Assembly: GCA_024653575.1 (NCBI GenBank)
Contig: JANLIJ010000068.1
Span: 1 to 43,950, forward strand
Direction: 5' to 3'
Origin: Candidatus Kaiserbacteria bacterium
Lineage (GTDB): Bacteria; Patescibacteriota; Minisyncoccia; Phycocordibacterales; UBA918
Length of the DNA stretch: 43,950 nucleotides
Shown: positions 7,413 to 43,829 of the stretch, piece by piece
Layout of the letters: each line of letters starts with the position of its first letter
Numbering within the stretch: the stretch's first letter is position 1
Made by a program: the position numbers and the translations under genes
The notes under the pieces: model-generated
Databases searched by the model: none
What the model was told of the DNA's origin: nothing
The model's input: the letters and a program-made list of their open reading frames with translations, nothing else

Positions 7413-7422
7413 GTTTGACGCA

Positions 7423-7469: not shown

Positions 7470-7527
7470 TGAAACCTTAAAATAAACAGCGGTAAGAAAA
7501 GCAGGCGTCTTGCGTCACAATGAATAT

Positions 7528-14614: not shown

Positions 14615-14655
14615 AGAGCCACCCGCACATGACTCTGTCATGTGCGGGTGGCTCT
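14615..14655 (-). terminator. 19-bp perfect hairpin between the toxin gene stop and the thrC start
   Basis: AGAGCCACCCGCACATGACtctGTCATGTGCGGGTGGCTCT. On the minus strand it is followed by cgttt. Confidence 0.6.
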
Positions 14656-15263: not shown

Positions 15264-16190
15264 CTACCCCCTCGAATGAAACTTCTTGTGAATATCTCTG
15301 AGGTGTTTGTCGGTGACGTGGGTGTATATTTGCGTCGTTGCAATGTTGGCGTGGCCGAGGAGCGCCTGCACGGAACGAAGGTCAGCGCCGTTACTCAAGA
15401 GGTCGGTAGCGAAGCAATGTCGGAGTTTGTGGGGAGTGACTTTACGCGTGATGCCTGAGATTGTTGCATACCGCTTGATGATGCGTTGTACGCTACGGGG
15501 AGTGAGGCGGAGGTCGATGTTTTTTTCATCATTATGCTTTGCATTTTTTCCATACTGAATGAACATTGCATCATCAAAGTCTTTTCGCTCCTTGAGGTAC
15601 GCCTTAATAGCATCTCGTGCGGTGTCTGAAAGAAACACTACACGGACTTTGTCACCCTTCCCTCGAATTGAAAATTCGTCACGAGTAAGATCAACGTCCT
15701 CCTGAGAAAGGGAACAGAGTTCTGAGACACGGAGGCCAGTCGAGAAGAGGAGTTCGAGAATTGCGCGGTCTCGAAGACCACTCAGTGTATTGGAATCAGG
15801 TGCCTCGATGAGACGCGTGAGCTCGGCAGGGGAGATGAGGTCAAGTGAACGCTCGGGAACCTTCGCAAGTTCAATGCGCTCGGGGTTGAGCGACTCTATA
15901 CCACGCTTGCGAAGATATTTAAGGAAGGCACGAAGCGCGATGAGGTAATAGTTCTGTGTTTTGCGCTTCAGTGTCTCCACATTTCGACCAACTTTTGTTC
16001 CTTGTTGCCGATTGAGCCAGAGGCGGTACTCACGTACCTGTGTTTCAGTAACATCCTTTGGGCCGTCTACCTTTGCATACTCTAAAAAGCGAGTGAGGTA
16101 GTGATCGTAGTTCCTGACAGTGAGAATACTGCGCCCCTTTTCAATTTCGAGGTATTCAAGAAACTCACGTTTTAGTTCTTTGAGCGTCAT
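15264..16190 (-). CDS. xerC: tyrosine recombinase, XerC/XerD-like
   Basis: N-terminal SAM-like core-binding domain. Catalytic residues R...HKLRHCFAT...LLGH...TQIYTHV. Confidence 0.85.
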   Translation of the reverse strand: MTLKELKREFLEYLEIEKGRSILTVRNYDHYLTRFLEYAKVDGPKDVTETQVREYRLWLNRQQGTKVGRNVETLKRKTQNYYLIALRAFLKYLRKRGIESLNPERIELAKVPERSLDLISPAELTRLIEAPDSNTLSGLRDRAILELLFSTGLRVSELCSLSQEDVDLTRDEFSIRGKGDKVRVVFLSDTARDAIKAYLKERKDFDDAMFIQYGKNAKHNDEKNIDLRLTPRSVQRIIKRYATISGITRKVTPHKLRHCFATDLLSNGADLRSVQALLGHANIATTQIYTHVTDKHLRDIHKKFHSRG

Positions 16191-16290
16191 ACCTATATAT
16201 AGTACACGAGAAGTGTCGCAAAATATTGCTTCATTCCACACCAATATCCTAAAATGTAAAAGCCCGAAAGCGGTGGGCTTTTACGGGCTT

Positions 16291-22383: not shown

Positions 22384-23910
22384 ATGGCAGTCGCACGCGT
22401 CTACGGAGCACAACCATCCCTCATGAGCGCCGACATCGTGACCTTAGAAACAGACCTCTCACGAGGTCTGTATGCGTTTGCGATTGTCGGTCTCGCAGGG
22501 AAGGCGGTGGAGGAAGCGCGCGACCGCATCAGTAGTGCAATTAAAAATACCGGACTCACCTCACCGAAGAGTGAGAATCACAAAGTGGTCATTTCACTTG
22601 CACCGGCAGACTTGAAAAAAGAAGGACCACTCTTCGATCTCCCCATGGCTATTTCCTACCTCATTGCCTCGGAGGAAATCTCTGCTGATGTATCAAAAAC
22701 TATTTTCATCGGGGAGCTCTCCCTCGACGGAGAACTCCGTCCGGTGCGTGGCGTACTGCCCATCGTCCGTAAGGCAAAGGAAGCAGGCTTTACTGAAGTT
22801 GTCATTCCGTTGGGGAATGTCGAAGAGGCTGGGCTCATTCCTGGCATCCGCATCACTCCCGCAAAGACGCTCCGTGAAGTCATCGCACACATCGACACAA
22901 AACGTGATGATCATGTGCGTATAGAGGAAGCGCCCCTCACACAAATAACAACGCTCTGGAGTGAAGGGAATGTTCGCCTTGAGGATGTCCGTGGGCAAGA
23001 GTCGGCAAAGCGTGGACTCATGATTGCTGCAGCAGGAAGACACAACGTTATTATGGTCGGACCACCGGGAACAGGAAAAACGATGCTCGCGCGCGCCTTC
23101 CAAGGAATACTTCCAGCGCTCACCCTCGAAGAGGCGCTTGAAGTGACGTCGATTCATTCGGTCGCGGGGACAGGTGAGGGTATTTCACTCCGTCCACCAT
23201 TTCGTGCCCCACATCACACCGCCTCATACACTGCACTCGTGGGAGGAGGTTCACACCCAAAGCCTGGTGAGGTCACACTTGCCCACAAGGGAGTGCTCTT
23301 CTGTGACGAATTTCCAGAATTCGAACGACGAGCAATTGATGCGCTTCGCCAACCGCTTGAGGATAGAGTCGTCTCTATTTCTCGCGTCCATTCGACAGCC
23401 CTCTTTCCAGCAGATTTCATTCTCGTCGCTGCAATGAATCCAACTCGAGGAGGTGATGAGAAAGGCGACTACGCGCACCAGATGATTGAGACATACAAAA
23501 ACAAAATCTCAGGACCAATCCTCGACCGCATCGACCTCTGGCTCTCTGTCCCGCATGTGGACTATGATACGCTCACGGAGAAACGTGCCCCGAGCCCCGA
23601 AGGGGCGAGGAGTGAGACCGACATCGCCCGTGAGAAAATCGCACAGGCACGCGAGCGACAGTACTCACGCTTCAAAGGGTCTGGCATCCAAACCAACGGA
23701 GAAATGTCCGCCCGTGATATCGAAGAGCAAATCGAGATGACCAAGCCCGTCCGCGAACTCTTGAAGCGCTCCGCCGAAAAGCTCAATCTCTCTCCCCGGA
23801 GCTACCACCGCCTCATCAAAGTCAGCAGAACCATAGCAGACCTAGAAAACTCCGACGACCTCAAAGAATCCCACGTCCTTGAGGCGCTCCATTTTCGATC
23901 AAAGGCATAG
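22384..23910 (+). CDS. comM: YifB/ComM-family Mg-chelatase-like AAA+ ATPase
   Basis: Lon-like N-terminal domain. Walker A GPPGTGKTM. VLFCDEFPEF. C-terminal S.RSYHR..KV.RTIADL. Confidence 0.9.
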   Translation: MAVARVYGAQPSLMSADIVTLETDLSRGLYAFAIVGLAGKAVEEARDRISSAIKNTGLTSPKSENHKVVISLAPADLKKEGPLFDLPMAISYLIASEEISADVSKTIFIGELSLDGELRPVRGVLPIVRKAKEAGFTEVVIPLGNVEEAGLIPGIRITPAKTLREVIAHIDTKRDDHVRIEEAPLTQITTLWSEGNVRLEDVRGQESAKRGLMIAAAGRHNVIMVGPPGTGKTMLARAFQGILPALTLEEALEVTSIHSVAGTGEGISLRPPFRAPHHTASYTALVGGGSHPKPGEVTLAHKGVLFCDEFPEFERRAIDALRQPLEDRVVSISRVHSTALFPADFILVAAMNPTRGGDEKGDYAHQMIETYKNKISGPILDRIDLWLSVPHVDYDTLTEKRAPSPEGARSETDIAREKIAQARERQYSRFKGSGIQTNGEMSARDIEEQIEMTKPVRELLKRSAEKLNLSPRSYHRLIKVSRTIADLENSDDLKESHVLEALHFRSKA

Positions 23911-26267: not shown

Positions 26268-26306
26268 ATACCCCCTATACTTTACATAGTAAAGTATAGG
26301 GGGTAT
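26268..26306. promoter_or_regulatory. 18-bp perfect inverted repeat in the divergent hxlR/FMN-reductase promoter region
   Basis: ATACCCCCTATACTTTACataGTAAAGTATAGGGGGTAT. Confidence 0.65.
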
Positions 26307-26864: not shown

Positions 26865-26880
26865 TCAGAAACCCTCACCT

Positions 26881-26929
26881 CACACAAATAAAATCCCCGA
26901 GCCGTAGGCCCGGGGGTTTTATTTGTGTG
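26881..26929. terminator. long hairpin terminator (19 bp including one G-U) between convergent genes
   Basis: CACACAAATAAAATCCCCG..CGGGGGTTTTATTTGTGTG. Confidence 0.75.
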
Positions 26930-26941
26930 AGATTTATTTAA

Positions 26942-27970
26942 TTAAAAAGGATTGCGGGCTCCTCGTACCTCAAAGTGCAGGTGATTTCCTGTTGAACGCC
27001 CAGTACTTCCAACATATCCAACCACCTCACCTGCAGTGACGGTATCACCGACGGCAACTGCGTTTCGCGAACAGTGTGCATAGAGTGTCTGTGTTCCATT
27101 TGGATGTTTCACTACCACGTAGAGCCCATACCCACCGTTCCAACCAGAACTCTTTGCAACAATCACTTCCCCAGATGCGGCTGCAAGTATTGGTGTTCCT
27201 GCTGGAGCACCGAAATCAACTCCGTTGTATCCATGGATACCTTGCGTTCGAACTGAGCCAGGAAGCGGGTGTGCGTATCCTGCACTACCATTACCTGTTG
27301 CAACTTTCCCACTTGCTTTTGATGTGCCCTTCTTTGAAGGTGCTGGTGTAGAAATGACTCCTCCAGGGACAACAATAGTATCTCCAACACTTACATCCTC
27401 AGCAGACGCAAGTTGGTTATATGCAAGGATATCATCGACATCACCATCATACTTCTTTGCAATGGATGCGAGTGTATCGCCCTTCTTCACCACGTGGCGA
27501 ACCCCGGTAATCGGAAGGATAATGAGTGAGTCGCCTGGGCGGATCTTGCTTGGGCTTCCAATATCATTTGCCCAGAGAATCGTCTTTGAACTCACATCAA
27601 ACATTTCTGCAATCTGTGAGAGTGTATCGCCTTCGCGAACAACGTAAAGACTAATCTCACCGTTTACCGTCTTTATATTTATTGAATCAGTCTTCCCATC
27701 AATGTCACCAGCAGGAACAAGGGCGCCATCTGACACAATGATGTCACCACCCCCTTTTGCGGGATTTGGATCAATATTGAGTGCGGCACGGAGGAGGGGA
27801 ACTGTCTGGGCGCTTGCGCCTGTCGCAAACTCCTCAGCTTGAACTGACGATATAGATACCGTACTAAAAAGTGTGGTGAGCAGACCCGCATTCACAAGGA
27901 AAGGTATTGAAAGGGCACCGACAACAAGGCTCACGGAGACAATGCGTCCCATCATATATATGTATGTCAT
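26942..27970 (-). CDS. LysM-domain M23-family metallopeptidase (cell-wall hydrolase)
   Basis: Two LysM repeats (YVVREGDTLSQIAEMF, HVVKKGDTLASIAKKY). M23 motifs HxxxD-like and GSTGRSTGNHLHFEV. Start ambiguous within the first 7 codons. Confidence 0.88.
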   Translation of the reverse strand: MTYIYMMGRIVSVSLVVGALSIPFLVNAGLLTTLFSTVSISSVQAEEFATGASAQTVPLLRAALNIDPNPAKGGGDIIVSDGALVPAGDIDGKTDSINIKTVNGEISLYVVREGDTLSQIAEMFDVSSKTILWANDIGSPSKIRPGDSLIILPITGVRHVVKKGDTLASIAKKYDGDVDDILAYNQLASAEDVSVGDTIVVPGGVISTPAPSKKGTSKASGKVATGNGSAGYAHPLPGSVRTQGIHGYNGVDFGAPAGTPILAAASGEVIVAKSSGWNGGYGLYVVVKHPNGTQTLYAHCSRNAVAVGDTVTAGEVVGYVGSTGRSTGNHLHFEVRGARNPF

Positions 27971-31770: not shown

Positions 31771-31843
31771 CCACAGCTTTTACAGCAAAAAACCACCGTT
31801 TACCCACACTACTTGGTATACTTTATGAGTAATCTACCTTCGT

Positions 31844-32725
31844 GTGAAAGGCAAAGTTCGTATAGGAGGAGCGCTCGGTGTGGGGGTTGTCATAATCCTC
31901 GGTGCTTTGGTGGCGAACAGTGTGGGGAACGAGACTCCCGTTGGAGCCGTTGTCGTCTCGAAGGCCCCAGAACGTCAATACATCGCATCACAGGACTCCG
32001 ATGGTGATGGGGTGAAGGACTGGGAGGAAAATTTGCAGGGAAAAGTCTTTGAGACAATTCCGACACCGACCTCGACATCCTTCACAAGCGGGGACGAACC
32101 CTATGAACCACCCACGACACTCACTGGTAAATTCTCCGAGGCATTTTTCCAAGACTATCTCCAGGGGAAAATAAACGGTGAGGACTTTAGTGACCCAACT
32201 GCGTTTATAGGGAATGCAGTGACTGCGATTGAGAAGAATACGGAGAGCAAAAAACATTCACGCAATGAACTCAACACTGTGTCCGATTCCCCGGAAGCTT
32301 TCCACATATATGGAAATGAATTTGCAAAAATAATGAACTCGAGTGTTGTCTCTGTTGAGAACGAGGCCATCATTCTGCAACAGGCACTCACCGCCAATGA
32401 CCCTACTATCCTTGAAAAACTCACCCCTATTCATGAGGCCTACGTATCGTACATTTCACAGGCACTTGTAATGGAGGTCCCCGAATCTTTTGCGCTTTTA
32501 CATGTCTCTGCACTCAATACTTTTGAATCAATCCTGACAGATGTTGAAGCGATGAGGCTCGCATTCACCGACCCGCTCTATGCACTTGCACGCACGAAAG
32601 GATATGAAGATGATGCTAAGGCACTTTACGAATCCCTTCAAAAGATAAATGAGAAGCTTTCTGAGAATAATGTAAGCTACACAAATGATGAGCCGGGGGT
32701 ATTTTTCTACCTTTTTGATATATGA
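31844..32725 (+). CDS. membrane-anchored hypothetical protein with DSDGDGVKDWEE (TSP3-like Ca-binding) motif; first gene of the T4SS-like operon
   Basis: GTG start. N-terminal TM segment. 4-nt overlap with the next gene. Confidence 0.6.
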   Translation: MKGKVRIGGALGVGVVIILGALVANSVGNETPVGAVVVSKAPERQYIASQDSDGDGVKDWEENLQGKVFETIPTPTSTSFTSGDEPYEPPTTLTGKFSEAFFQDYLQGKINGEDFSDPTAFIGNAVTAIEKNTESKKHSRNELNTVSDSPEAFHIYGNEFAKIMNSSVVSVENEAIILQQALTANDPTILEKLTPIHEAYVSYISQALVMEVPESFALLHVSALNTFESILTDVEAMRLAFTDPLYALARTKGYEDDAKALYESLQKINEKLSENNVSYTNDEPGVFFYLFDI

Positions 32726-34266
32726 AATTCCTCGCTTCTCAAAAAGGAAAATTCTTCTCTTCGATAATTGCAGGGTTTTTAACCCTTAGTTTTATCCTTG
32801 CACCAATTTCTCAGAATCTTGAGACAAGAAAGGTAGAGGCTGCCGTTGATTATGAAACCTTAAACACTTGGTGGAATGGTTTGTCTGCTGGTTCAGGTGG
32901 TGTATCTGCAATTGCAAACTCCGCTGCCGCTAAAGCGCAAGGGTGGCTTGTATTCAAGGAGTTTACACTTGACGGTATCGCATGGATGCTTATCAATATT
33001 ACAATTCAGGAAATGATTCGGAGTACCACGAGATGGGTGGCATCAGGATTTAAGGGAAGTCCGGCGTTCGTCACCGACCTTCAAGGGTTTCTTCTCAATA
33101 TTGCCGACAAGGTAGCGGGGAATTTCATTTATGGTTCAAATCTTGCCTTTTTATGTTCTCCCTTCAAGCTCAATATTCAGCTCGCACTGGATTTAAGCTA
33201 CGAAAGAACCCGTGGGTATGAAGCACAGTGCAGACTCAGCCGAGTAGTCGGGAATATGGACCGCTTCCTCAATGGAGATTTCTCGCAAGGGGGCTGGGAC
33301 GGATGGTTTGAAGTGGCAATGACTGATTCAAACCCATACGCAACAAAGCTTGAGGCGGAATCGGCAATGTATGCAAGTATCGGAAGTGCTCAGGGTATTC
33401 AAACGAAAAAACTTGATTTTGGTAAGGGATTCCTCTCAGTACAGGACCCAAGTTGTAATGTCGATATGGGACCTTGTCCTGATGTTACTCCTGGCGCAGC
33501 CGTTGAAAGTCTAGTCAATTCAACACTTCAACTCCCTGCCCAGCGACTCAATGTTGCCAAGGAAATCAATGAACTTGTCGGCACGCTTCTTACGCAACTT
33601 GGTAAGGAAGTCCTCAGTGGTGCCGGTGGGCTTCTCGGACTCACCGATTCAAGCTATGGGGATGGAAACTACTGGAGTCGAGTTGACGCAGACACCTCTG
33701 CCGTTGGATACGTTGGAAATTCACAGCCAATATTCGAATCGACCCTTGAGAATGAGAACAGGTTTATAACTCTCAATACCACGATTGTAGATATGGTCAA
33801 TGCTGTTCGTGGCTACAGAGAAGCTATGTATCCTGTGCGAACGTACACCGACCCCGACACAGGACGAACGGTCACCACGACACCCTGCGCCTCGGGCGAG
33901 CTTACCCCTTCACTAGAGAGAGCCCTTACCACTGCACAGAGAAATATCGCATCGACGACAGTACTCGTAGCAGAACTAACACTTCTTCAGACAGACTATA
34001 ATGCTGTACAAAATGTATCAATCGCATCAACAACACTGAGGACGCTTATGCGCACGTACAATGGCAACTCTGTCCCTGATACCAAATCAAAGATACTTGA
34101 TAGGTACCTTCAATATGAGTCTTCGGGAAGACTGCATGACGCGACAACGCTGGTCAACCTCGAGCTCCAAACGATTCGTTCACTTGGTGATGAAATCACT
34201 GCATTCAAGTCGTCGATTGACAACGCGTGTAGGAATTACAACGACAATAACTCGAATGGTCGTTAA
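32722..34266 (+). CDS. large secreted/anchored hypothetical protein of the T4SS-like operon
   Basis: N-terminal signal anchor. ATGA overlap with the upstream gene. No family recognised. Confidence 0.6.
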   Translation: MKFLASQKGKFFSSIIAGFLTLSFILAPISQNLETRKVEAAVDYETLNTWWNGLSAGSGGVSAIANSAAAKAQGWLVFKEFTLDGIAWMLINITIQEMIRSTTRWVASGFKGSPAFVTDLQGFLLNIADKVAGNFIYGSNLAFLCSPFKLNIQLALDLSYERTRGYEAQCRLSRVVGNMDRFLNGDFSQGGWDGWFEVAMTDSNPYATKLEAESAMYASIGSAQGIQTKKLDFGKGFLSVQDPSCNVDMGPCPDVTPGAAVESLVNSTLQLPAQRLNVAKEINELVGTLLTQLGKEVLSGAGGLLGLTDSSYGDGNYWSRVDADTSAVGYVGNSQPIFESTLENENRFITLNTTIVDMVNAVRGYREAMYPVRTYTDPDTGRTVTTTPCASGELTPSLERALTTAQRNIASTTVLVAELTLLQTDYNAVQNVSIASTTLRTLMRTYNGNSVPDTKSKILDRYLQYESSGRLHDATTLVNLELQTIRSLGDEITAFKSSIDNACRNYNDNNSNGR

Positions 34267-34271
34267 ACATT

Positions 34272-36488
34272 ATGTTTGCAAAGATTAACAACCTCATAAC
34301 GAAAAAGACCTTCCTCGGTCTACTCTTGTGTGTGATTGTTTTCTTGACACCGGTATCTGCGACGTACATACCGAGTAATGATGCTACCGTACAGAAGATA
34401 GAAGGGGAAGTGCTTGTTGCTTTTGCAAAGGACCCGAACGACAAGGGGTTGGGGTATCTGACTGATTCAGAATTACTTGGTATGGCGAAAGGATCTTATT
34501 ATGAAATGTGGAAATCTCTTGGCCTCTGGATTGGAAACACAATCCTTGCAGTAGCATCTATGTTTACCTACGTTGGAGGAACATTCCTTGATATGTCTCT
34601 TAAGATAACGGTATTTAAAATGGGAGACCTCATCAACGGTGGCGTCGGGAATGCAATAAACAACACGTGGAAAATCATTCGAGATATCTGCAACCTCGCA
34701 TTCATCTTTGGTTTTGTATACATCGGTATCCGCACTATCATCGACCCCGAGAGCGCATCCACGAAGCGCTTCCTCTCAAAGATTATTATCGGGGCACTCC
34801 TCATCAACTTCAGTCTCTTCTTTGTAAAATTCATTGTTGATTTTTCCAATTTCACCGCGTACCACATCTATAATGCGATGGTAAGTGGAGAAGGATCTCT
34901 CTCTGCAACGGTTGCGAACATGCTTGGCATTGTCTCTCTTTTTAAAGCCCCTGACCCTGCTCAATTTGCTCAACTTACAAATGGAGCATCCTTTTGGTTT
35001 TTCGTATTTGGAGCAATTCTCCTCCTTATTGTCGCGTTCGTATTTTTTGCTGCTGCGATACACCTTATAACCAGGTTTGTTGCCCTTGTACTTATCATGG
35101 TTGGCTCACCCATCCTCTTCGCAGCGACCGTCTTCCCCCAGACAGAACACTACGCAAGTGATATGTGGAAGAAACTCATTTCATACGCATTCTTCGCTCC
35201 GGTATTTCTACTCCTCATTCTTATATCCCTCACACTCGTGCAGGGACTGGGTACTGCTATCGCGCCCAATGGTTCTTCTTTCGTAACAGCCCTTAAACAG
35301 GGCAGTAACTCGTCTGTAGGACAAACAGGCTCAATGGGTATTATCTTAAATTTTGCGGTCATTATCTTCTTCTTCATCCAATCTCTCCTCCTTGCACAGA
35401 AGATGGGTGTTGCAGGAGGAGATGCCGCGGTGAGCATGGGGAACAAAATACGAGGAAATGTCCAGAGTGCAATAGGAAGAAATACCATTGGCGCAGCTTC
35501 ACATAAAATCCGTGAGAAATATGAAGAATTTGATGCAAAAACCAAAGATAGTAAAAATTGGAATCGCCTAAAAACTGTTGGGAAAATTGCGACGCTTGGT
35601 GCTGTTGATGACAGGACGATACGCCAAACCCTAGAAGCTGGAGAACATGCAAAATTTGGTGGGTCGTATTCTTATGAAGATGATAAGAAATACAGTGACT
35701 CACGTACAGCTCGTCAGGCAAAGACGCTCGAGACAGAAAAGATAAAAGCTACGATAGAAGCAGGCGCCTCTACACCTGTCGGAGACCCCGCAAGAATTCC
35801 GATGGAGAGAGCTATCGCAGGAGCTTCTTCCGAACAGATTCTGTCGCTCTTGGCTGACCCTGAGTATAAACACGGCACTCCTAAATATAATGAACTTGTT
35901 GGGCATCTCTCTTCAAGCCAATTTGAGAATGTCATGAAAGCAAAACCAGAAGACTTTGATGATGCAAAAAAGGCTCAGGTCTCGGCTAGTCGTGCATCAT
36001 TTATAAAGACCAAACATGGTGTGGTTGGGGGAGCCGTAGGAGCAACACCAGGAACTATTGGAAAGGCTGATGCGAGCGATCTTGATGCAATGGACTTTGA
36101 TACGGTCGTTCAACATGCTGGTCACATAAGTGCAAAACAAATTGATGACATGAAGGGGCTTACGCCGACTGCGAAAAAGACGCTCAAGGACGCAAGAAAT
36201 AACGCACTCATTAAGGAATTTAAACCTGCAGGAGTCTCAACTCCAGCTTCTGCAACGAGTTTGTTCAATAGAATAACAAATGATACTGAACGTTCAAAGC
36301 TTCCTCCAGAAATATTAACTGATACAAAAGCAGCTCAGCATCTTAACGCAAATGTGCTCACAAAAATTCTTGATAATGATTCTATTGACTCTGTTAAAAG
36401 AAACACCATTAAGACAAATGTTCAGATGATCCATGGAAATAATGCTTTTAATAACTTCTTTACCACACCTGCAGGTAGTAGATACTAA
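34272..36488 (+). CDS. polytopic membrane protein, TrbL/VirB6-like, with a long soluble C-terminal tail
   Basis: About 7 hydrophobic spans in residues 80-380, followed by a Lys-rich tail of about 330 aa. Sits beside VirB3/VirB4 homologues. Confidence 0.55.
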   Translation: MFAKINNLITKKTFLGLLLCVIVFLTPVSATYIPSNDATVQKIEGEVLVAFAKDPNDKGLGYLTDSELLGMAKGSYYEMWKSLGLWIGNTILAVASMFTYVGGTFLDMSLKITVFKMGDLINGGVGNAINNTWKIIRDICNLAFIFGFVYIGIRTIIDPESASTKRFLSKIIIGALLINFSLFFVKFIVDFSNFTAYHIYNAMVSGEGSLSATVANMLGIVSLFKAPDPAQFAQLTNGASFWFFVFGAILLLIVAFVFFAAAIHLITRFVALVLIMVGSPILFAATVFPQTEHYASDMWKKLISYAFFAPVFLLLILISLTLVQGLGTAIAPNGSSFVTALKQGSNSSVGQTGSMGIILNFAVIIFFFIQSLLLAQKMGVAGGDAAVSMGNKIRGNVQSAIGRNTIGAASHKIREKYEEFDAKTKDSKNWNRLKTVGKIATLGAVDDRTIRQTLEAGEHAKFGGSYSYEDDKKYSDSRTARQAKTLETEKIKATIEAGASTPVGDPARIPMERAIAGASSEQILSLLADPEYKHGTPKYNELVGHLSSSQFENVMKAKPEDFDDAKKAQVSASRASFIKTKHGVVGGAVGATPGTIGKADASDLDAMDFDTVVQHAGHISAKQIDDMKGLTPTAKKTLKDARNNALIKEFKPAGVSTPASATSLFNRITNDTERSKLPPEILTDTKAAQHLNANVLTKILDNDSIDSVKRNTIKTNVQMIHGNNAFNNFFTTPAGSRY

Positions 36489-36492
36489 AAAT

Positions 36493-37020
36493 ATGCCAGA
36501 TATTGAACAAGTAAGAATCAACACGTACAGAGCGTCAAATGATGCTACAAAAGATCTCTATGGGGATGTCGAACTTGGTGAAGCTTTAGGAACAATCTCT
36601 GAGCGGTTTCATCTTGATGAAAATATTAAACGTATATTCATCGATGTAATCGGTGATGCAATTCTTGGTTTGTTTCCAAAAGAAAATATTGAGAAACAAC
36701 TCATTGAACAAATTCACCTTCCTGAGAGCTCTGCAAAGGGTATCGTCAAAGAACTTGAGAGTTTCATAGCTCGTATTACTACTCAAAGGCCTGAGGGAAA
36801 TATGGTCGCTGTAAATGCGCCAACGCCCCAGATTCAACAAAATCAGCTCGCCGGAGAACCCCGCCCACTCACCCGAGAAGAGCTCATGCAGAAGCTCTCT
36901 CCGCGTCGGACGATGGTTCAGGATGTTGCCTCAGTGCAACATCCTACTGCATCGCAACCCGCAAGTGCCCCAGCCCAAGGATACGATGCCTATCAAAAAA
37001 ACGTGCAGGGCGGAGGATAG
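36493..37020 (+). CDS. hypothetical protein
   Basis: ATG at 36493 lies 5 nt after the upstream stop codon. 175 aa with a Q/P-rich C-terminus. Confidence 0.5.
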   Translation: MPDIEQVRINTYRASNDATKDLYGDVELGEALGTISERFHLDENIKRIFIDVIGDAILGLFPKENIEKQLIEQIHLPESSAKGIVKELESFIARITTQRPEGNMVAVNAPTPQIQQNQLAGEPRPLTREELMQKLSPRRTMVQDVASVQHPTASQPASAPAQGYDAYQKNVQGGG

Positions 37021-37093
37021 TGTGGGCGGGCATTAACTATCCGCACACACACCCTCGGTGAGCATGCGGAATGCGGTACAATACAATCATGAG

Positions 37094-37211
37094 TCCCGTT
37101 AGAGATAGCGGGTACACAAAATTAAAATACATACATGGGGTCGGAAATTATCACAAAAAATAACCTGGGGCTCTCTACACACGTGGTGTACGTGCCCTAT
37201 CTCTAACGGGA
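37094..37211. repeat. inverted-repeat element (15-bp perfect arms, extendable to about 23 bp) enclosing 68 nt; MITE-like or a regulatory helix
   Basis: TCCCGTTAGAGATAG (37094-37108) is the reverse complement of CTATCTCTAACGGGA (37197-37211). ATGAG is present on both flanks (37089-37093 and 37211-37215). Confidence 0.6.
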
Positions 37212-37609
37212 TGAGATTTGAAGTCCCACAATTTATTGAGATTGAGGACAAGATTGTCGGTCCGCTGACATGGCGCCAGTTTGTGTATGTCGCGGGTGGA
37301 GTGGGGATTATCACCATTCTCTATCTCAGCACATCCTTCATGATTACTATCCTCCTTGGCCTCCCCATCGGAGCACTCTCTGCTTCGCTCGCATTCCACA
37401 AGGTCAACAATCGCCCATTCTCAATCTTCCTTGAAGCACTTGTGTCATACACCGCAAAGAAAAAACTGTATCTCTGGAGGAAGGAAACTCCATCATCGGT
37501 TATAGAAAAGAATTACGAAGCAGTATCACCAGCACCAAAACTTTCAAATACGTATGGGCAAACCATCACTTCACTTTCTCACAAACTAGAACATCATCTA
37601 CCTGAATAA
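37211..37609 (+). CDS. PrgI-family (VirB3-like) T4SS membrane protein
   Basis: VPQFIEIEDKIVGPLTWRQFVYV followed by two TM segments, the classic PrgI N-terminal pattern. Confidence 0.75.
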   Translation: MRFEVPQFIEIEDKIVGPLTWRQFVYVAGGVGIITILYLSTSFMITILLGLPIGALSASLAFHKVNNRPFSIFLEALVSYTAKKKLYLWRKETPSSVIEKNYEAVSPAPKLSNTYGQTITSLSHKLEHHLPE

Positions 37610-37610
37610 C

Positions 37611-38228
37611 ATGGCAAAAAGCTCAGCAACACAACACTTCGTCCCAATTGCAGACATCCATGATGATGTGGTGGTTCTTAAGGATGGACAACTCTGCATG
37701 GTACTCCTCGCCTCTTCAATAAACTTTGCACTGAAGTCGAGCGAGGAACAACAAGCAATTCTCTCCCAGTTCCAAGCATTCTTGAATGCAATTGATTTCT
37801 CAATGCAGGTATACGTGCAGTCACGACGCCTCGATATTCGCCCCTACCTTGAAATTCTTCGGACACGTGAAGGTATACAGGACAATGAGCTCATGCGTAT
37901 TCAACTTCGTGAATACATGGAATTTATTGGAACATTCACTGACCAAGTCGAAATCATGACCAAAAACTTCTTTGTCGTTATCCCATATTCACCGAGCACG
38001 CTCAATACGAGCAGTATGCCAAGTTTTTTAAAAAAGAAAGTATCAGAAGAAAAACGAGCGGACAAATTTTTTGAGGACAGAACACAGCTTGAGCAACGCA
38101 TCTCAGTTGTGGAGCAGGGGCTTTCTCGCATTGGGGTACGAACAGCGCTCCTCGGGACAAATGAACTCGTCGAACTCTTTTACCACATCTTTAATCCGAG
38201 CGATTTAGCAGACGCACCAAAACAATAA
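37611..38228 (+). CDS. hypothetical protein; N-terminus resembles the VirB4 N-terminal domain
   Basis: FVPIADIHDDVVVLKDGQLCMVLLASSINF...EEQQAIL.QF..FLN is collinear with residues about 25-100 of the downstream VirB4-like protein. Confidence 0.5.
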   Translation: MAKSSATQHFVPIADIHDDVVVLKDGQLCMVLLASSINFALKSSEEQQAILSQFQAFLNAIDFSMQVYVQSRRLDIRPYLEILRTREGIQDNELMRIQLREYMEFIGTFTDQVEIMTKNFFVVIPYSPSTLNTSSMPSFLKKKVSEEKRADKFFEDRTQLEQRISVVEQGLSRIGVRTALLGTNELVELFYHIFNPSDLADAPKQ

Positions 38229-38230
38229 TT

Positions 38231-40021
38231 ATGGGACTTCTTGACTTCATCCAACAAAAGAAACAAGCGTCGACTGAAGTAGTCGCTGACACAAACACAC
38301 TCTCTCTTCCTGATGTGGTTGCCCCTTCGGCAATCAGTATCAACCCAAAGAGTATTAGTGTGAGCGGTCGTCTCTCTCGCGTTTTCTTTGCCGTCTCATA
38401 CCCACGGACACTCACTGATGGATGGCTCGAACCAATCCTCAATATCGAAAAGGAAATCGATGTTTCAATAGTCATCCATCCCATCGATACTGCAGAAACA
38501 CTCAAAAAATTCCAAAAGAAGGTTGCAGAAGTACAGAGTCAAATCAATGAACGGGCAAATGAGGGAAAGGTCCGCGACCCACAGCTCGATGCCGCATACC
38601 GCAACCTCGAGGACCTCAGAGATAAGCTCCAGCAGGCTGAGGAAAAACTCTTTAATGTGGGGCTCTACATAGCCCTCTACGGCGAGACGGAAGCTGACCT
38701 CAACAAGACCGAGTCGGAGATTCGTGCAATCCTCGACGCGCGTATGGTGTACATCAAGCCGGCCCTCTTCCAACAAGAGGAGGGGTTCCTCAGTGTCATC
38801 CCTACAGTCACCGACAAACTTCTCGTACACACAAAATTCAACTCGTCTCCGCTCTCGAGCTTTTTCCCGTTCACCTCCTTCGACCTCACCTCTGACACCG
38901 GGATTCTCTATGGCATCAATCGTCACAACAGCTCTCTCGTACTCTTCGACCGCTTTACCCTTACGAACTACAACTCAGTCACCTTCGCCACCTCGGGAGC
39001 AGGGAAGTCGTACACCACAAAACTCGAAATCCTCCGTTCACTCATGTTTGGGACTGAGGTCATCGTCATAGACCCAGAACATGAATATGAACAATTGGCA
39101 GAGGCGACTGGTGGACGATTCTTCAACATCTCACTCTCCTCAAACCACCACATCAATCCATTTGACCTTCCTGTCCCGCTTCCCGATGAAAATCCTAAAG
39201 AACTCCTTCGCTCCCACATCATTGAACTCATCGGGCTCTTCAAACTCATGCTCGGGGGCCTCTCTCCTGAGGAGGATGCGGTCATTGATGCTGCGCTTCA
39301 CGAAGTATATGCACTCAAGGACATTACGGGCTCTGGTGATTATCGCGATCTCGAACCACCACTTCTCTCAGACTTTGAGATGGTGCTTGCAGGAATGGAG
39401 GGGAGTGAGTCCCTCGTCCAGCGCCTCACAAAGTACACATCGGGAACGTGGGCAGGCTTTATGAACGAAGCAACGAACGTGGACATCAATCAAAAGTTTG
39501 TGGTTTTCTCACTCCGCGATATGGAAGAAGATTTGAAGACGATTGCCATGTACATTATTACGAATCACATTTGGGGAGCGGTGCGCAGGGAACTGAAGAA
39601 ACGTCTCCTCGTTATCGATGAGGCATGGTGGATGCTCAAGTCTGAGGACACCGCTGCCTTCCTCCACAACATTGCAAAACGTGGTCGCAAATACTACCTT
39701 GGTCTCTCTACTATCACGCAAGACGTCGATGACTTCCTCAGGTCACCCTATGGCGTACCGATGATTACCAACTCGTCGATACAGCTTCTCATGAAACAAT
39801 CTCCGACCGCGGTGGATACGCTCCAAAATGTCTTTAATCTCACTGATGAAGAACGTCTCACCCTCCTCGAATCGAGCGTTGGAGAAGGAATATTCTTCGT
39901 CGGACTCAAGCACGTTGCCATCAAGGTAATCGCTTCGTACACCGAAGACCAAATCATCACCTCCGACCCCTCACAACTTCTCCAAATACAACAGGCTCGC
40001 GCTGAGCTGGGGAGAAATTAA
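38231..40021 (+). CDS. virB4: VirB4/TrbE-family T4SS ATPase
   Basis: Walker A ATSGAGKSYT. Walker B LLVIDEAWWML. Downstream RKYYLGLSTITQ. Confidence 0.88.
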   Translation: MGLLDFIQQKKQASTEVVADTNTLSLPDVVAPSAISINPKSISVSGRLSRVFFAVSYPRTLTDGWLEPILNIEKEIDVSIVIHPIDTAETLKKFQKKVAEVQSQINERANEGKVRDPQLDAAYRNLEDLRDKLQQAEEKLFNVGLYIALYGETEADLNKTESEIRAILDARMVYIKPALFQQEEGFLSVIPTVTDKLLVHTKFNSSPLSSFFPFTSFDLTSDTGILYGINRHNSSLVLFDRFTLTNYNSVTFATSGAGKSYTTKLEILRSLMFGTEVIVIDPEHEYEQLAEATGGRFFNISLSSNHHINPFDLPVPLPDENPKELLRSHIIELIGLFKLMLGGLSPEEDAVIDAALHEVYALKDITGSGDYRDLEPPLLSDFEMVLAGMEGSESLVQRLTKYTSGTWAGFMNEATNVDINQKFVVFSLRDMEEDLKTIAMYIITNHIWGAVRRELKKRLLVIDEAWWMLKSEDTAAFLHNIAKRGRKYYLGLSTITQDVDDFLRSPYGVPMITNSSIQLLMKQSPTAVDTLQNVFNLTDEERLTLLESSVGEGIFFVGLKHVAIKVIASYTEDQIITSDPSQLLQIQQARAELGRN

Positions 40022-40035
40022 ATATACATATTACT

Positions 40036-40695
40036 ATGAGCGACGCCGACAACACGAGAGGCATCCAAAATGCGGAGGCGCGCTATCCAACCGCTGAAGA
40101 CCGTCAGACTACGCGCTCAAATGAACGCCTCACGAGTGCACAGCTTCGTCGTCCGCGTGGTAGGCGGGTACGGTCAGGTGATACTGAAGAAGCTGTCTCT
40201 CCTTATTTTGATGACCCAAACGATCTTAGTCCTTCAACAATAAAGGAATTTGGTGATATTTTTGAAAAGGGTGGAGTAAGACTTGATGATTCTGAACTAC
40301 GCGAGGCGCTTGAAATGAAGCTCAAGGATGTGACCGCCCCCGGTTTCCCTTATTTTATATTTTTCATTGCGCTCACTAAGGATATTGTGGATGTGGTTGT
40401 AACAGTAACGGTAATTGGTATCGTGATTTCAATGGCGTTGTCATTTCTCTGTGCCCTCATTTTATTTATTTGGACAATGGAAAAATTGGGTGTAAGTGGG
40501 GGTAAATTACAAAAAAAGCGCGTTCAGGGAATTTTAATCAAATATGGCCTTTCCACGGGAATTGAGTTTATTCCAGGGATTAATGTCATCCCAACAACCA
40601 CGATATTTGTACTCCTGACCTATTTGCAGGAAGCAAAAATATCAAGACTACATAAATTTGCACTCAATAAAATCCAGCGTCGGTTGGTACGATAA
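40036..40695 (+). CDS. membrane protein (basic disordered N-terminus, 3-4 TM), unknown function
   Basis: Hydrophobic spans FPYFIFFIAL..VVTVTVIGIVISMALSFLCALILFIW. Confidence 0.55.
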   Translation: MSDADNTRGIQNAEARYPTAEDRQTTRSNERLTSAQLRRPRGRRVRSGDTEEAVSPYFDDPNDLSPSTIKEFGDIFEKGGVRLDDSELREALEMKLKDVTAPGFPYFIFFIALTKDIVDVVVTVTVIGIVISMALSFLCALILFIWTMEKLGVSGGKLQKKRVQGILIKYGLSTGIEFIPGINVIPTTTIFVLLTYLQEAKISRLHKFALNKIQRRLVR

Positions 40696-40760
40696 TTCCT
40701 AATTATTATCCAGAAACGCCACCGCAATTCGTTTTGTGCCGTGATACACTATTAGTATAT

Positions 40761-41765
40761 ATGGGGTCACAAAGTAGACATTCTCTCTCTATCATACTGG
40801 CTGTTCTTCTGATTGGGTGCGTGTGGACACTCTTCTTTTCTATGAGCGATGCCCACGCGCAATCATTCGGCATGGGAGGAGATGGGCTTAGTCTTGTGTT
40901 GAAACCAGAATTTCCAAAACCCTATGGAACCATCGAGGTGTCCGTGAATGACTACAGCATCGATACCCTCGGGTCGACTATCACATGGTACATTGACGGA
41001 GAAGAACTTCCTGACTCGAAAAATGAACGAGCAATTACTCTCGACGCAAAGGGTCTTGGTGAGAAGAGTGAAGTAAGTGTTCTCATAACAAATCCCAAGA
41101 TGCCCGCCTTTTCTGCAACACAAACTATTATCCCTGTTGCAATCGATACCATTCTTGAAGCTGATACCTACGTTCCCACTTTTTATAGGGGAAGGGCACT
41201 CCCGAGCAGAGAAGCGACCGTCCGTGCCATTGCAGTGGTACACGACGGCACAGAAGCTCCTGACACTCGCTATACCTATAAATGGACACTCAATGATTCC
41301 GTGCTCTATGGTGGTCCGGTGACGGGGAAGAATGTTGCCGAGTTCACCTTACCCCACTATGATGGCGCACGACTTACCGTCGATGTTTTCAATAAAGATT
41401 CTGTGAATGTGGGAAGACAATCTTTCATTCTCAAGCCCGCTGACCCTGAAATGCACTTTTATGAAAACAGCGCCCTCCGTGGCCTTTCACAAAAAGAAAT
41501 CGGTTCCTCATACGCACTTACTAAAGATGAAGTGAGCGTATTCGCAGAACCATACTTTATGAACACCAATACCATTACCCAGTCTTTTGCTGATGTCACG
41601 TGGAAAATAAACGGTATAGAATCAGAGGCAGATACACAGATACCCAATGCGATTACCCTCAAGCGTGTGGGCGAGGCAGGGGATGCACTCATTGAGTGTA
41701 GTATAGTAACAAAGAGTCGTATCCCTCAGTATGTAACATCATCATTCCAAGCATTCTTCCAATAA
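40761..41765 (+). CDS. secreted protein with three Ig-like repeats
   Basis: Signal peptide ending AHAQ. Recurring [IV]TW.I[DN]G / YKWTLN repeat starts. Confidence 0.55.
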   Translation: MGSQSRHSLSIILAVLLIGCVWTLFFSMSDAHAQSFGMGGDGLSLVLKPEFPKPYGTIEVSVNDYSIDTLGSTITWYIDGEELPDSKNERAITLDAKGLGEKSEVSVLITNPKMPAFSATQTIIPVAIDTILEADTYVPTFYRGRALPSREATVRAIAVVHDGTEAPDTRYTYKWTLNDSVLYGGPVTGKNVAEFTLPHYDGARLTVDVFNKDSVNVGRQSFILKPADPEMHFYENSALRGLSQKEIGSSYALTKDEVSVFAEPYFMNTNTITQSFADVTWKINGIESEADTQIPNAITLKRVGEAGDALIECSIVTKSRIPQYVTSSFQAFFQ

Positions 41766-41766
41766 T

Positions 41767-42498
41767 ATGAACGCTATCCAAAAAAATCGACACGCCCTCT
41801 CCAAAACACTTATGCTGTGTTCATCCTTAATCTTCTACTTCCTTCTCGTGTCTTTTGCTGAGGCGGCGGGAGAATATATCCCCATCGTTGCAATCCCTGG
41901 GCTCAATAACCAAAAAATCGCAAGTCTCCCCGAATATATAAACAAGATTTATTTCTTCACCATCACGATTGGCGCGCTCTATGGCGTTGTGAAGATTGCT
42001 TTTGCCGGAGTGAAGTACAGCATGAGTGACATCATCACGAGTAAAGAATCTGCAAAAGAAGATATCAAGGGAGTACTCCTCGGTCTCGCCATTCTCCTTA
42101 TACCATTTATCGTCCTCAGGACAATCAACCCAGAACTCACCCGACTTGATGTACTCAGCAGTGTAAGTGTAAAAAATAAAATAAATTTAATAAGTGGTTC
42201 AGTAAAAGATGGTAAATCTACACCAAGGTATCAGGAAGGTGATCTTAAAACTGTAGGTACTCAAATAAGTACCGCCTCAAAAACAAGTAGCACATCATCT
42301 CAGAGTGGGTCTGTCACAAGTAACAATACCTCAAATACTAATGGCACTATGAATAGAGAAATCCTCATCCCAATAAGAGCCGGCACTGAACAAGAACTTG
42401 AAAATGTAAAAGAAGAATGTCGCGCAAATATGCCCGGTGGAACGGCAAATTTCTTGAAAGATCCTGCACGGGGAAAATACGTGTGCACAAATTATTAA
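41767..42498 (+). CDS. T4SS pilin (VirB2/TrbC-like, CPR type) with an S/T-rich linker and a Cys-containing C-terminal extension
   Basis: Signal sequence ending AEAAG. Two TM helices flank AGVKYSMS...ESAKEDIKGVLLGLAILLIPFIVLRTINPEL. About 110 additional residues follow. Confidence 0.65.
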   Translation: MNAIQKNRHALSKTLMLCSSLIFYFLLVSFAEAAGEYIPIVAIPGLNNQKIASLPEYINKIYFFTITIGALYGVVKIAFAGVKYSMSDIITSKESAKEDIKGVLLGLAILLIPFIVLRTINPELTRLDVLSSVSVKNKINLISGSVKDGKSTPRYQEGDLKTVGTQISTASKTSSTSSQSGSVTSNNTSNTNGTMNREILIPIRAGTEQELENVKEECRANMPGGTANFLKDPARGKYVCTNY

Positions 42499-42510
42499 CA
42501 CTGGATACAT

Positions 42511-43686
42511 ATGAAAAAACCTATCTTTGTTACATTGAGCATTATCGTTACCATCCTCATATTGGGTATCTGGGCATACCTTTTCACCTTTGGTACACCA
42601 AAGGATGGCGCTGAGATTTTTACCAACTTCGGGTTGGGCAATAATGAGGGAGTATCTCCTGTTATTGTAGATTCCACAACAGTAGATGTAAGCGACGCTA
42701 CGCAGGAAGGAGCGCCTCAAGCACTCAAGCAACTTACACTCCGCCCTGTTGCAGGGGCAACATTTACTGGAAATGATGACGTGGTGCGATATGTTGAGCA
42801 GGGGACGGGACACATATATTCTATTAACCTTGTAAGCGGAGCAGAGTCACTTATAAGCGGAACGACACTCCCGGGGACACGAGAGGCACTCTTCGCGAAA
42901 GACGGTGCCCAAGTCGCAATTTCTATATTTGATGGAGCAGAACTAAAAACACTTGTCGGTAGTGCGGGAGAGAGTGCGACACAGAGCTTTACGGGAGTCA
43001 CTCTCCCAAAGGGGGCACAGAACATTTACTTTGACACTGCAACAAACACGCTCATGTATACCCTGAAGAGCGAGACGGGGATTTCTGGATACTCATACAA
43101 CACAAAGAAGGAGACCGGCATACAATTATTCTCAATACCACTTCGAGATGTGACTGTACTCTGGGGAGGGGAGAGTATTCATGTGTACACCACACCAACA
43201 GCAAGCCAAACGGGGTACTTATACAAGATTTCAAAAAATGAACTCACGTATGTCGCAGAAGGGGGGAGGGGACTTATGGGTTTTGTATTTAACGATGCTC
43301 CTATCGTCACCACGTCAGAAGAGACGGGTATTATCTCCTCAATAGTTACTTCCGGTATAAAAACTCCTCTCCCTGTGGCAGTGATACCAGAAAAGTGTGT
43401 TGGTGATGAGACCTTCCTCTACTGTGCTGTCCCTCGTGATTTCGGAAACATGGAAACCTTCCCTGACAATTGGTACAAAGGTGTGACTTCCTATAGTGAC
43501 ACTCTCTGGGAGATTGATATAGATAACAGCATCGCAACCGTACTGAGTAATTTTGAACTTGAAAGTGGGCGACAAATCGACGTTTCAAAAATCGGAATCT
43601 CAGAAGATAACACTCGCCTCTACTTCATCAACAAAAACGACAACACCCTCTGGATGTTCGACTCAAGAGTACTTTCTGGAGAATAA
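42511..43686 (+). CDS. membrane-anchored beta-propeller-like (TolB/PD40-like) hypothetical protein
   Basis: N-terminal TM segment. Repetitive beta-strand-rich sequence (RYVEQGTGHIYSINL...). Confidence 0.5.
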   Translation: MKKPIFVTLSIIVTILILGIWAYLFTFGTPKDGAEIFTNFGLGNNEGVSPVIVDSTTVDVSDATQEGAPQALKQLTLRPVAGATFTGNDDVVRYVEQGTGHIYSINLVSGAESLISGTTLPGTREALFAKDGAQVAISIFDGAELKTLVGSAGESATQSFTGVTLPKGAQNIYFDTATNTLMYTLKSETGISGYSYNTKKETGIQLFSIPLRDVTVLWGGESIHVYTTPTASQTGYLYKISKNELTYVAEGGRGLMGFVFNDAPIVTTSEETGIISSIVTSGIKTPLPVAVIPEKCVGDETFLYCAVPRDFGNMETFPDNWYKGVTSYSDTLWEIDIDNSIATVLSNFELESGRQIDVSKIGISEDNTRLYFINKNDNTLWMFDSRVLSGE

Positions 43687-43829
43687 CCCTCCACTCATAA
43701 AAAAGAGAGGCCTCTCAGTCTCTTTGTTTGTAATCACACTACCAATCAACGAGCTTGTAACAAGCACTAGATACCTACCTTATACCATAAGCAACACCTG
43801 TCGCTTATGGTATAAATCTCAAAAAGTAC

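Follow-up and report, generated by a model that had tools for sequence, protein, structure and literature searches.

We have analysed a stretch of 43,950 nucleotides from a Candidatus Kaiserbacteria bacterium (assembly GCA_024653575.1, contig JANLIJ010000068.1), called the window in what follows. Towards its 3' end eleven co-directional genes, designated g1 to g11 in order, make up a type IV secretion system (T4SS) cluster (Table 1). Judged by its sequence-level features, all of which match, the cluster is an ordinary member of the already described Patescibacteria clade of T4SSs derived from MPF-FATA, and not a new system. The best joint explanation of our results is a chromosomal T4SS of this clade, descended from monoderm MPF-FATA machinery, which serves the interface between the epibiotic cell and its host and not conjugation; we put the probability of this reading at roughly 60%. 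The original prediction, made from the DNA letters alone, had proposed a minimal non-conjugative T4SS with analogues of VirB2, VirB3, VirB4 and VirB6. This core is supported by profile matches and by the lack of mobility gene families.

The motor protein g7 reaches 362.8 bits with the NCBIfam family NF045971 (VirB4-like CD1110 family equivalog; cut-off 325, profile positions 180–733 of 752) and 92 bits with Pfam P-loop_TraG (E 3e-26). Its nearest solved structure is 4AG5, the C-terminal domain of VirB4 from the Firmicute Thermoanaerobacter (E 6.6e-40), and both Walker A (ATSGAGKS) and Walker B (LLVIDE) motifs are intact. The preceding protein g6 matches TrsD (NF041427, E 4.8e-9) over profile positions 16–200 of 201 and has a precomputed Pfam match to PF26593 (TraC-like). 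On the model TIGR00929, g6 occupies positions 4–181 and g7 positions 250–721. Since the two proteins are collinear on VirB4 models, VirB4 is split over two adjacent genes, as it is in Gram-positive systems of the pGO1 type. The original prediction had counted seven further proteins of unknown function; g6 was wrongly placed among them, being according to NCBIfam the TrsD-like N-terminal protein of VirB4. The channel protein g3 scores 29.3 bits with Pfam TrbL (gathering score 25.9, E 8.8e-7). It has about seven transmembrane (TM) segments and a hydrophilic C-terminal tail of about 360 amino acids (aa), and in the alignment of orthologues the TM core is conserved and the tail is not. For g5 the Pfam PrgI score is 38.8 bits against 27 (E 1.3e-9). 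The predicted TrbL/VirB6, PrgI/VirB3 and VirB4 assignments of g3, g5 and g7 are hence all above the curated Pfam or NCBIfam cut-offs. No homologues of VirB7–10 were found in the cluster with Pfam and NCBIfam. VirB4 is 66–99% identical across Paceibacteria and 66–82% identical among the species-representative loci described below. The best 120 database matches are 82–99% identical, and the names given to them and to the genome loci are all Patescibacteria-group labels or 'uncultured bacterium'.

For the pilin g10, 35 positional orthologues were aligned and scanned with Pfam. T4SS_pilin (PF18895) is matched by 30 of them, with a best E of 9e-10, and TrbC/VirB2 (PF04956) by five. Common to them are a signal peptide, the motif PL.GIPG, a pair of long hydrophobic helices and a C-terminal extension that is rich in Cys and highly variable. 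In the AlphaFold2 (AF2) model, built with 70 sequences, helices 54–86 and 91–120 (pLDDT about 80–92) form a two-helix hydrophobic hairpin, followed by a disordered Ser/Thr-rich linker and a small Cys-containing alpha/beta C-terminal domain at residues 185–242. A g10 profile gave no match in the PDB. The assignment as pilin is based on the Pfam matches of the orthologues and on the predicted helical hairpin; the proposed pilin of the CPR type (CPR, candidate phyla radiation) is thus upheld by the orthologues, while the protein of the window itself stays below the threshold. In F-type pili both termini of the pilin are on the outer surface. By analogy, the C-terminal domain of g10 would probably be displayed on a filament. 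One pilin orthologue (L061:13338–14108) has a VanY domain (D-Ala-D-Ala carboxypeptidase; E 5e-10) at its C-terminus and is a fusion of pilin and cell-wall enzyme. This fusion hints at displayed domains that are able to act on the cell wall of the target.

The exact VirB4 protein of the window is present on a 221-kb ENA contig (ERZ27247358 k141_1151732) and on one Logan contig. A scan of GTDB species representatives gave 579 relatives among the first 600 candidates. We searched 82 loci by tblastn with all window proteins, namely the best 80 of at least 579 relatives and two loci with the window's own VirB4 (L001 and L002). The order in most of them is uvrD, HTH gene (minus strand), ksgA, g1, g2, virB6, g4, prgI, trsD, virB4, g8 (not always present), g9, g10 and g11, yidC and rnpA (both minus strand), dnaA and dnaN. 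The original prediction had suggested a survey of the cluster and its gene order; from uvrD and ksgA to dnaA and dnaN the order is largely kept. The order of g10 and g11 is swapped in a subset of loci. TrsD was matched in 82 loci, PrgI in 81, g9 in 76, g11 in 70, VirB6 in 62, g10 in 60, g2 in 53 and g1 in 39; TrsD always stands beside virB4, and PrgI directly 5' of TrsD in 81 of the 82. Downstream of the window end, in L001, there are a PaaX-like gene, yidC, rnpA, dnaA and dnaN, which places the cluster at the replication origin. This position in the core genome is kept across about 80 Paceibacteria species in which VirB4 is 66–82% identical, and we therefore consider the cluster to be a core chromosomal system and not an integrative and conjugative element (ICE).

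The other larger open reading frames (ORFs) of the window have housekeeping functions or are small regulatory genes; among them are ksgA, uvrD/pcrA, comM, pnp, thrC and the genes of a Xer-type recombinase and an ABC-ATPase. Pfam finds no type IV coupling protein (T4CP), relaxase or VirB11 family among them. Relaxase and T4CP genes were not found in the 32 kb upstream or the 10 kb downstream of the cluster, nor was a linked oriT found in that span. The claim that coupling protein, relaxase and VirB11 are missing is borne out for the 44-kb window and 10 kb beyond it; where mobility genes just past the window had been named as the finding that would speak against the prediction, yidC, rnpA, dnaA and dnaN stand instead. 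The single recombinase of the window is a tyrosine recombinase of the XerC/D type (Phage_integrase with a SAM-like N-terminal domain; 15264–16244, minus strand). It lies about 16 kb upstream of the cluster in a housekeeping context, with no sign of a bordering mobile element. Residence of the ICE type is not seen: the place between ksgA and yidC is fixed in about 80 species and the GC content of the cluster, 0.44–0.49, is the same as that of its flanks. A tRNA search of the window gave none, and Rfam at the gathering threshold gave nothing relevant over the whole window. The predicted places of comM (22384–23910), of a LysM-M23 gene, of KsgA and of UvrD are correct. The LysM-LysM-M23 peptidoglycan hydrolase (26942–27970, minus strand) is encoded upstream of uvrD and has the same place in a relative with 89% VirB4 identity (L083 1–299, minus strand). 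It is a candidate for a VirB1 analogue outside the cluster.

All eleven ORFs are present on the forward strand between 31844 and 43686 in the ORF list and its translations, as had been predicted, and two start codons had to be corrected. The start of g4 is most likely ATG 36493 and not 36433, in agreement with the gene call in contig L001, which replaces a 56-nt overlap with g3 by a 4-nt gap. The start of g9 is most likely ATG 40761 and not TTG 40734, again as in L001, which leaves 65 nt between g8 and g9. The intergenic distances from g1 to g11 then are −4, 5, 4, 190, 1, 2, 14, 65, 1 and 12 nt. The description of the cluster as having gaps of at most 15 nt save one of 190 nt was nearly right, the g8–g9 gap being the exception. 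The genes are indeed co-directional, but a single operon is doubtful. In related loci, −10 boxes with the consensus TA[TCA][AC][AC]T, in many cases preceded by TG (extended TGnTAnnnT), occur 4–11 nt 5' of start codons. They were counted before prgI (g5) in 55 of 76 loci, before g1 in 21 of 35 and before g9 in 27 of 72; for the other genes tested the share is 5–28%. In the window g1 is preceded by a −10-like box, TGGTATACT, and g9 by the box TGATACACT 10 nt upstream. Relatives have GGTACAAT or TGTATAAT 6–8 nt before the ATG of PrgI. This pattern suggests three transcription units, g1–g4, g5–g8 and g9–g11, whose transcripts would start at or very near the start codons; g1, g5 and g9 probably each have a promoter close to the start codon. 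Elsewhere in the window five intergenic sites (7421–7471, 9007–9055, 14615–14655, 26268–26306 and 26879–26931) hold perfect or near-perfect palindromes of 18–25 nt with loops of 3–5 nt, which are probably terminators.

Table 1. Features of the T4SS cluster, with positions in the window
Feature	Position	Strand	Description	Basis
−10 box of g1	31814–31822		putative promoter element	consensus match
g1	31844–32725	+	293 aa, N-terminal membrane anchor, DxDxDG-like motif DSDGDGVKDWEE, helical ectodomain	ORF
g2	32722–34266	+	514 aa, anchored or secreted, Paceibacteria-restricted	4-nt overlap with g1
g3	34272–36488	+	extended VirB6/TrbL polytopic channel subunit	Pfam TrbL
g4	36493–37020	+	175 aa, soluble, helical N-terminus, low-complexity tail	start as in L001
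Putative displaced core-unit promoter and duplicated ATG	37077–37091	+	−10 box of prgI, TACAAT 37077–37082; ATG 37089–37091	consensus match
Inverted-repeat element	37095–37210	+	MITE-like, 116 nt, at the PrgI start codon	terminal inverted repeats, direct repeats, empty sites
g5	37211–37609	+	PrgI/VirB3-like small membrane protein	Pfam PrgI
g6	37611–38228	+	TrsD/TraD-like, stand-alone VirB4 N-terminal domain	NCBIfam TrsD NF041427
g7	38231–40021	+	VirB4 ATPase, monoderm MPF-FATA type, C-terminal motor part	NF045971, P-loop_TraG, 4AG5
g8	40036–40695	+	219 aa, membrane protein, hydrophilic N-terminal region and 3 TM segments	TM segments
−10 box of g9	40741–40749		putative promoter element	consensus match
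g9	40761–41765	+	334 aa, secreted or anchored, three Ig-like repeats	Hoc profile match
Recombinant tract	41300–43600		3' part of g9, all of g10, nearly all of g11	comparison with L001 and L002
g10	41767–42498	+	VirB2-like pilin	orthologue PF18895 matches, AF2 hairpin
g11	42511–43686	+	391 aa, N-terminal anchor and TolB-like beta-propeller	TolB profile matches
Terminator-like hairpin	43704–43725	+	8-bp stem followed by GTTTGT, after g11	consensus scan (consensus match only)

Signal or anchor segments were found in g1, g2, g8, g9, g11 and the pilin g10, leaving out only g4 among these proteins, so most of the cluster is envelope and surface material. As far as searched, homologues of g1, g2, g4, g8, g9 and g11 occur only in Paceibacteria, and PHROGs gave nothing for the seven cluster proteins g1, g2, g4 and g8–g11 and one other ORF of the window. 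Neither g1 nor g4 belongs to a Pfam, NCBIfam or PHROGs family. One TM-like segment, residues 5–23, is present in g1. Its motif, from which a Ca-binding-motif protein had been proposed, is there and is partly conserved as d.d..G..dW in an alignment of 36 sequences taken from the loci with a tblastn match. The protein g4 has no TM segment, evolves fast and was detectable by tblastn in 13 of the 82 loci. For g9 the orthologue profile matches the Ig-like domains of phage T4 Hoc (3SHS, E 2.5e-6), with a W..NG motif every 100 aa or so, and for g11 it matches TolB structures (E 1.4e-4), which supports the proposed three-Ig-repeat and beta-propeller-like folds. Positional orthologues of g8 vary in length between lineages, are absent in some lineages and have two invariant prolines. 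The idea that g8 is a second pilin was rejected (hhalign probability 7.6%).

In g2 the N-terminal half, which contains Cys, is conserved and the C-terminal half is variable; only 126 homologues are detectable, all named hypothetical. Its AF2 model consists of helices throughout and exceeds a pLDDT of 90 only at about residues 340–500, a C-terminal helical bundle. Foldseek against the PDB returned generic helical matches, none with E below 0.1, and the profile search against the PDB gave no match; a VirB5-like or VirB1-like role was dropped, as neither search supported it. Four homologues of g2 (P0211, P0213, P0224 and P0227), which align over some 40–50% of the length in the N-terminal half, have additional domains of the F5/8 type C (discoidin) or DUF5011 families. 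The domains of these homologues suggest that g2 may be a modular surface protein of the binding type.

The window and L001 are identical from 28231 to about 41250 and again from about 43750 onwards as far as the window reaches; in between, at about 41300–43600 (L001 13070–15370), there are around 390 differences. Within this tract the window is 15–25% diverged from the otherwise identical L001 and L002, with amino acid identities to L001 of 73% for g10 and 85% for g11. The synonymous divergence (dS) is 0.64–1.0 and dN/dS is 0.14, on which grounds local hypermutation and positive selection were rejected as the source of the divergence; the values indicate an imported old allele. This indicates that the pilin and propeller genes form a 2.3-kb cassette apparently swapped by recombination between otherwise identical strains. 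Less probably, the tract is a chimera of co-occurring strains made in assembly: the tract allele of the window is in none of the indexed runs, and the best run has 23% of its words and probably represents the other allele. The patchy left boundary of the tract inside g9 resembles recombination. Two further loci with a 64%-identical pilin (L181 and L182) are uniformly diverged at about 70% and carry no information on mosaicism. That g10–g11 is the sole part replaced between otherwise identical strains is as expected for a host-facing surface, and it marks the pilin and the propeller as likely determinants of host specificity.

Our results agree with what has been published on Patescibacteria T4SSs. 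Wang et al. (2023) have described the T4SS of Southlakia epibionticum as unusual and Gram-positive-like, with predicted pilins and without recognisable coupling or relaxase proteins (PMC10633639), and for its epibiotic growth S. epibionticum needs both the homologous T4SS cluster and the pilin genes in it, which are essential (PMC10633639, PMC12857230). Quinonero-Coronel et al. (2025) have found a monophyletic Patescibacteria VirB4 clade that is sister to MPF-FATA. In their survey of the phylum TrsD is the commonest associated component, PrgI/VirB3, VirB6 and VirB2-like pilins are near virB4, relaxases are almost absent and the T4CP is usually far away; in Paceibacteria the T4SS neighbours are dnaA, dnaN, rnpA and ksgA (PMC12102498). 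A review from 2025 lists the Patescibacteria systems as newcomers to the T4SS superfamily. The following mechanism would fit our data. PrgI/VirB3 and TrsD would tether a VirB4 hexamer to the membrane, where the extended VirB6 would be the channel. VirB4 would drive extraction and polymerisation of the g10 pilin, giving a VirB2-type filament or conduit that passes via VirB6 and VirB3 across the single membrane. The C-terminal extension of g10, together with g9 and g11, could then be the exposed, host-facing part, and the Ig repeats of g9, the propeller of g11 and the proteins g1 and g2 would be its extracellular partners. Such a machine may work where epibiont and host meet, in contact and in either protein transfer or uptake of host molecules.

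Several points weigh against this interpretation. The window's own g10 protein has 13.8 bits (E 0.064) with Pfam T4SS_pilin, below the threshold of 26.6, and Foldseek with the whole g10 model returned weak unrelated matches and no pilin. At the sequence level, VirB8-like (PrgL/TraM) and VirB1-like (PrgK/TrsG) proteins gave no Pfam or NCBIfam match among the eleven products. The proteins g1, g2, g4 and g8 have no assigned role, and g9 and g11 have none beyond their fold. A coupling protein or relaxase could be encoded elsewhere in the genome, of which the 44 kb of the window and 10 kb downstream were inspected; T4CP homologues far from virB4 are common in Patescibacteria (PMC12102498). The transported substrate of Patescibacteria T4SSs is unknown even in the studied relative (PMC11665869). 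As for transcription, the boxes assigned to the three promoters are consensus matches only, and no indexed RNA run contains the locus.

Three other functions have to be considered against a role at the host interface. The cluster could be an appendage for adhesion only, in which the VirB4/VirB6/VirB3 core builds a decorated VirB2-type pilus for attachment and no substrate is translocated. The variable Cys-containing extensions of the pilins, the Ig-like and propeller ectodomains, the swapping of the pilin–propeller cassette between strains and the lack of a coupling protein for substrate recruitment would all suit such a pilus. We regard it as unlikely, since adhesion and motility are already served by type IV pili in Patescibacteria, the VanY domain on one pilin orthologue suggests enzymatic action on the wall of the target, and T4SSs without T4CP, such as Ptl and VirB of Brucella, still secrete proteins (PMC12102498). 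The original prediction had left the choice between host contact and a ComB-like machine for DNA uptake, which would import environmental or host DNA and pass it to ComEC and ComM. Here host contact is favoured, and DNA uptake is in our opinion quite improbable. Similarly to ComB of Helicobacter pylori, the cluster is without T4CP, relaxase and VirB11 and retains parts of the VirB2/3/4/6 type. Uptake has been proposed as a possible role of the T4SS in Saccharibacteria (PMC11665869), and in the class ABY1 the T4SS is located beside comF, recG and radA (PMC12102498). The gene comM lies 8 kb upstream of the cluster, although unrelated housekeeping genes part the two, and the recombinant g9–g11 tract implies that this lineage takes up and recombines DNA. 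Equivalents of ComB7–10 are absent, as expected in a monoderm. The genetics of S. epibionticum argue to the contrary. Its competence needs comEC, and type IV pili have also been reported to confer competence; comEC deletion mutants do not transform but are viable, while the T4SS is essential (PMC12857230). It follows that the essential role of that T4SS is not transformation.

A conjugative or mobilising T4SS whose relaxase, oriT and coupling protein are encoded elsewhere, with the cluster as a chromosomal helper for DNA export, is very improbable. It would agree with the descent from MPF-FATA conjugation machinery, with the distant T4CP homologues of many Patescibacteria genomes and with the few genomes that do have relaxases (PMC12102498). 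These amount to only 109 relaxase homologues, in 103 of the surveyed Patescibacteria genomes, and the T4CP was not essential where tested (PMC12102498). In the window, the lack of a linked relaxase or T4CP, the lone and distant Xer-type recombinase, the position beside oriC fixed in about 80 species and the composition like that of the flanks are all contrary to such a helper.

The 190-nt gap between g4 and prgI contains a 116-nt inverted-repeat element which resembles a miniature inverted-repeat transposable element (MITE). It has perfect 14-nt terminal inverted repeats (CCCGTTAGAGATAG and CTATCTCTAACGGG), extendable to about 23 nt, and is flanked by the direct repeat TGAG (37090–37093 and 37212–37215). 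In the window the conserved box GGTACAAT is followed by 6 nt, ATGAG, the element and ATGAG again, the last being the real start of prgI. The duplicated ATG now opens an upstream ORF of 24 codons. Four relatives (L083, L085, L004 and L005) have no insert at the PrgI start, and close relatives read TACAAT-N6–7-ATG. The predicted RNA structure is a long hairpin whose end is at the start codon (−68.8 kcal/mol, z −3.65). Rfam with E up to 10 over the gap gave no relevant match to it.

A metagenome scan for both element ends at a spacing of 73–103 nt returned 95 stretches (L086–L180), which represent 73 non-redundant sites. The elements of this family measure 101–123 nt and have the termini T-CCCGTTAGAGATAG...CTATCTCTAACGGG-A. 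At 50 of the 73 sites there is a direct repeat of 4 nt, in most cases TGAA/TTCA, TCCA/TGGA or TGAG, and at 53 sites (73%) the element directly adjoins the ATG of an ORF with 50 codons or more. Nine of ten scanned ORFs are recognisable full-length genes (topA, secDF, lepA, murG, uvrB and a pilB-like ATPase among them), and at topA, lepA and murG the ATG is clearly the authentic start, because the first Pfam domain begins at residues 3–5. The terminal A of the element and the duplicated TGNN rebuild the start codon. In the main subfamily 34 copies could be classified, and all of them have the same orientation relative to the gene. The T4SS cluster of a Zambryskiibacteriota metagenome-assembled genome contains a shorter copy, directly 3' of a GGTACAAT box; outside L086–L180, a copy is located at about L079:12980–13072. 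Two contigs have two copies each, some loci have extra copies, and the 44-kb window has one. In two loci (L157, about 1540–1690, and L166, about 1850–1990) a second element end lies directly 5' of the duplicated ATG, and these are tandem or nested insertions at the same site. A general rule that the element targets start-proximal promoters was rejected, as a −10 box is present 5' of the duplicated ATG in only 16 of the 53 gene-adjacent copies; an outward promoter within the element was rejected as well, its consensus being found forward in 21 and in reverse in 10 of the 53 copies, which is weak. A full-length partner element or transposase with the same ends was not found in the fetched loci, where no search was aimed at ends 1–2 kb apart.

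We give even odds that the 190-nt gap contains a copy of an apparently undescribed family which inserts at start codons in one orientation, and which acts as a mobile 5'-leader module before prgI–trsD–virB4 and before housekeeping genes. Publications that describe elements of this kind in CPR were looked for and not found. Correia elements of Neisseria and other bacterial MITEs are about 100–150 nt long, have terminal inverted repeats and a short target duplication (TA), occur in many copies in gene-adjacent intergenic regions and have the potential to form RNA hairpins. The present element is like them in size, terminal inverted repeats, short target duplication, many copies (here counted over metagenomes), intergenic positions beside genes and hairpin potential; it differs in the target duplication, which is 4 nt (TGAA-like) and not TA, in its start-codon sites and in its fixed orientation. 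If our interpretation is true, a transcript that begins at or near the start codon is turned into one with a hairpin leader, and CPR genomes could thereby have a new means of rewiring gene expression. A start-codon-associated element would be of interest for gene regulation and for the biology of mobile elements in reduced genomes.

The Patescibacteria T4SS belongs to the small number of machines with a demonstrated essential role in epibiotic life, and the window adds a typical example from Paceibacteria. In about 80 species the core is accompanied by a class-specific accessory set of g1, g2, g8, g9 and g11. The C-terminal domain of the pilin, a VanY peptidase in one relative, would probably be exposed on a filament. 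New are the three probable start-proximal promoters, the apparent swap of the pilin–propeller cassette and the 116-nt start-codon element, of which the cassette and the element are most worth following up.

Among known systems, the cluster can be compared most directly with SEML1_0006–0019 of S. epibionticum and with the Patescibacteria clade in general. They share a VirB4 of the MPF-FATA type, a separate TrsD, PrgI/VirB3, VirB6 and one or more VirB2-like pilins, the lack of an adjacent relaxase or coupling protein, and a chromosomal, origin-proximal location with ksgA, rnpA and dnaA as neighbours. In contrast to the array of six sequence-divergent pilins in S. epibionticum, the window encodes a single pilin with a long C-terminal extension. 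It has no peptidase or lysozyme gene directly 3' of virB4, the nearest wall hydrolase gene, that of the LysM-M23 protein, being about 4 kb upstream of the cluster on the other strand. It also differs in its accessory set, which consists of g1, g2, g4, g8, the Ig-repeat protein g9 and the propeller g11.

The monoderm MPF-FATA systems (trs of pGO1/pSK41, tra of pIP501, prg of pCF10 and CD1110 of CTn2) are similar in that VirB4 of the window is above the CD1110 equivalog cut-off, a TrsD-like protein precedes VirB4 as in pGO1, VirB3 is of the PrgI type, the channel is of the VirB6 type and an outer-membrane core complex is lacking. Unlike them, the cluster is not part of a mobile element and contains no relaxase, oriT, T4CP or recognisable VirB8-like or VirB1-like gene, and it has a VirB2-like pilin, whereas the Gram-positive systems have none. 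ComB of H. pylori is likewise a T4SS that does without coupling protein, relaxase and VirB11 and keeps parts of the VirB2/3/4/6 type. It is, however, a diderm MPF-T system with ComB7–10, whereas the system described here belongs to the monoderm MPF-FATA type.

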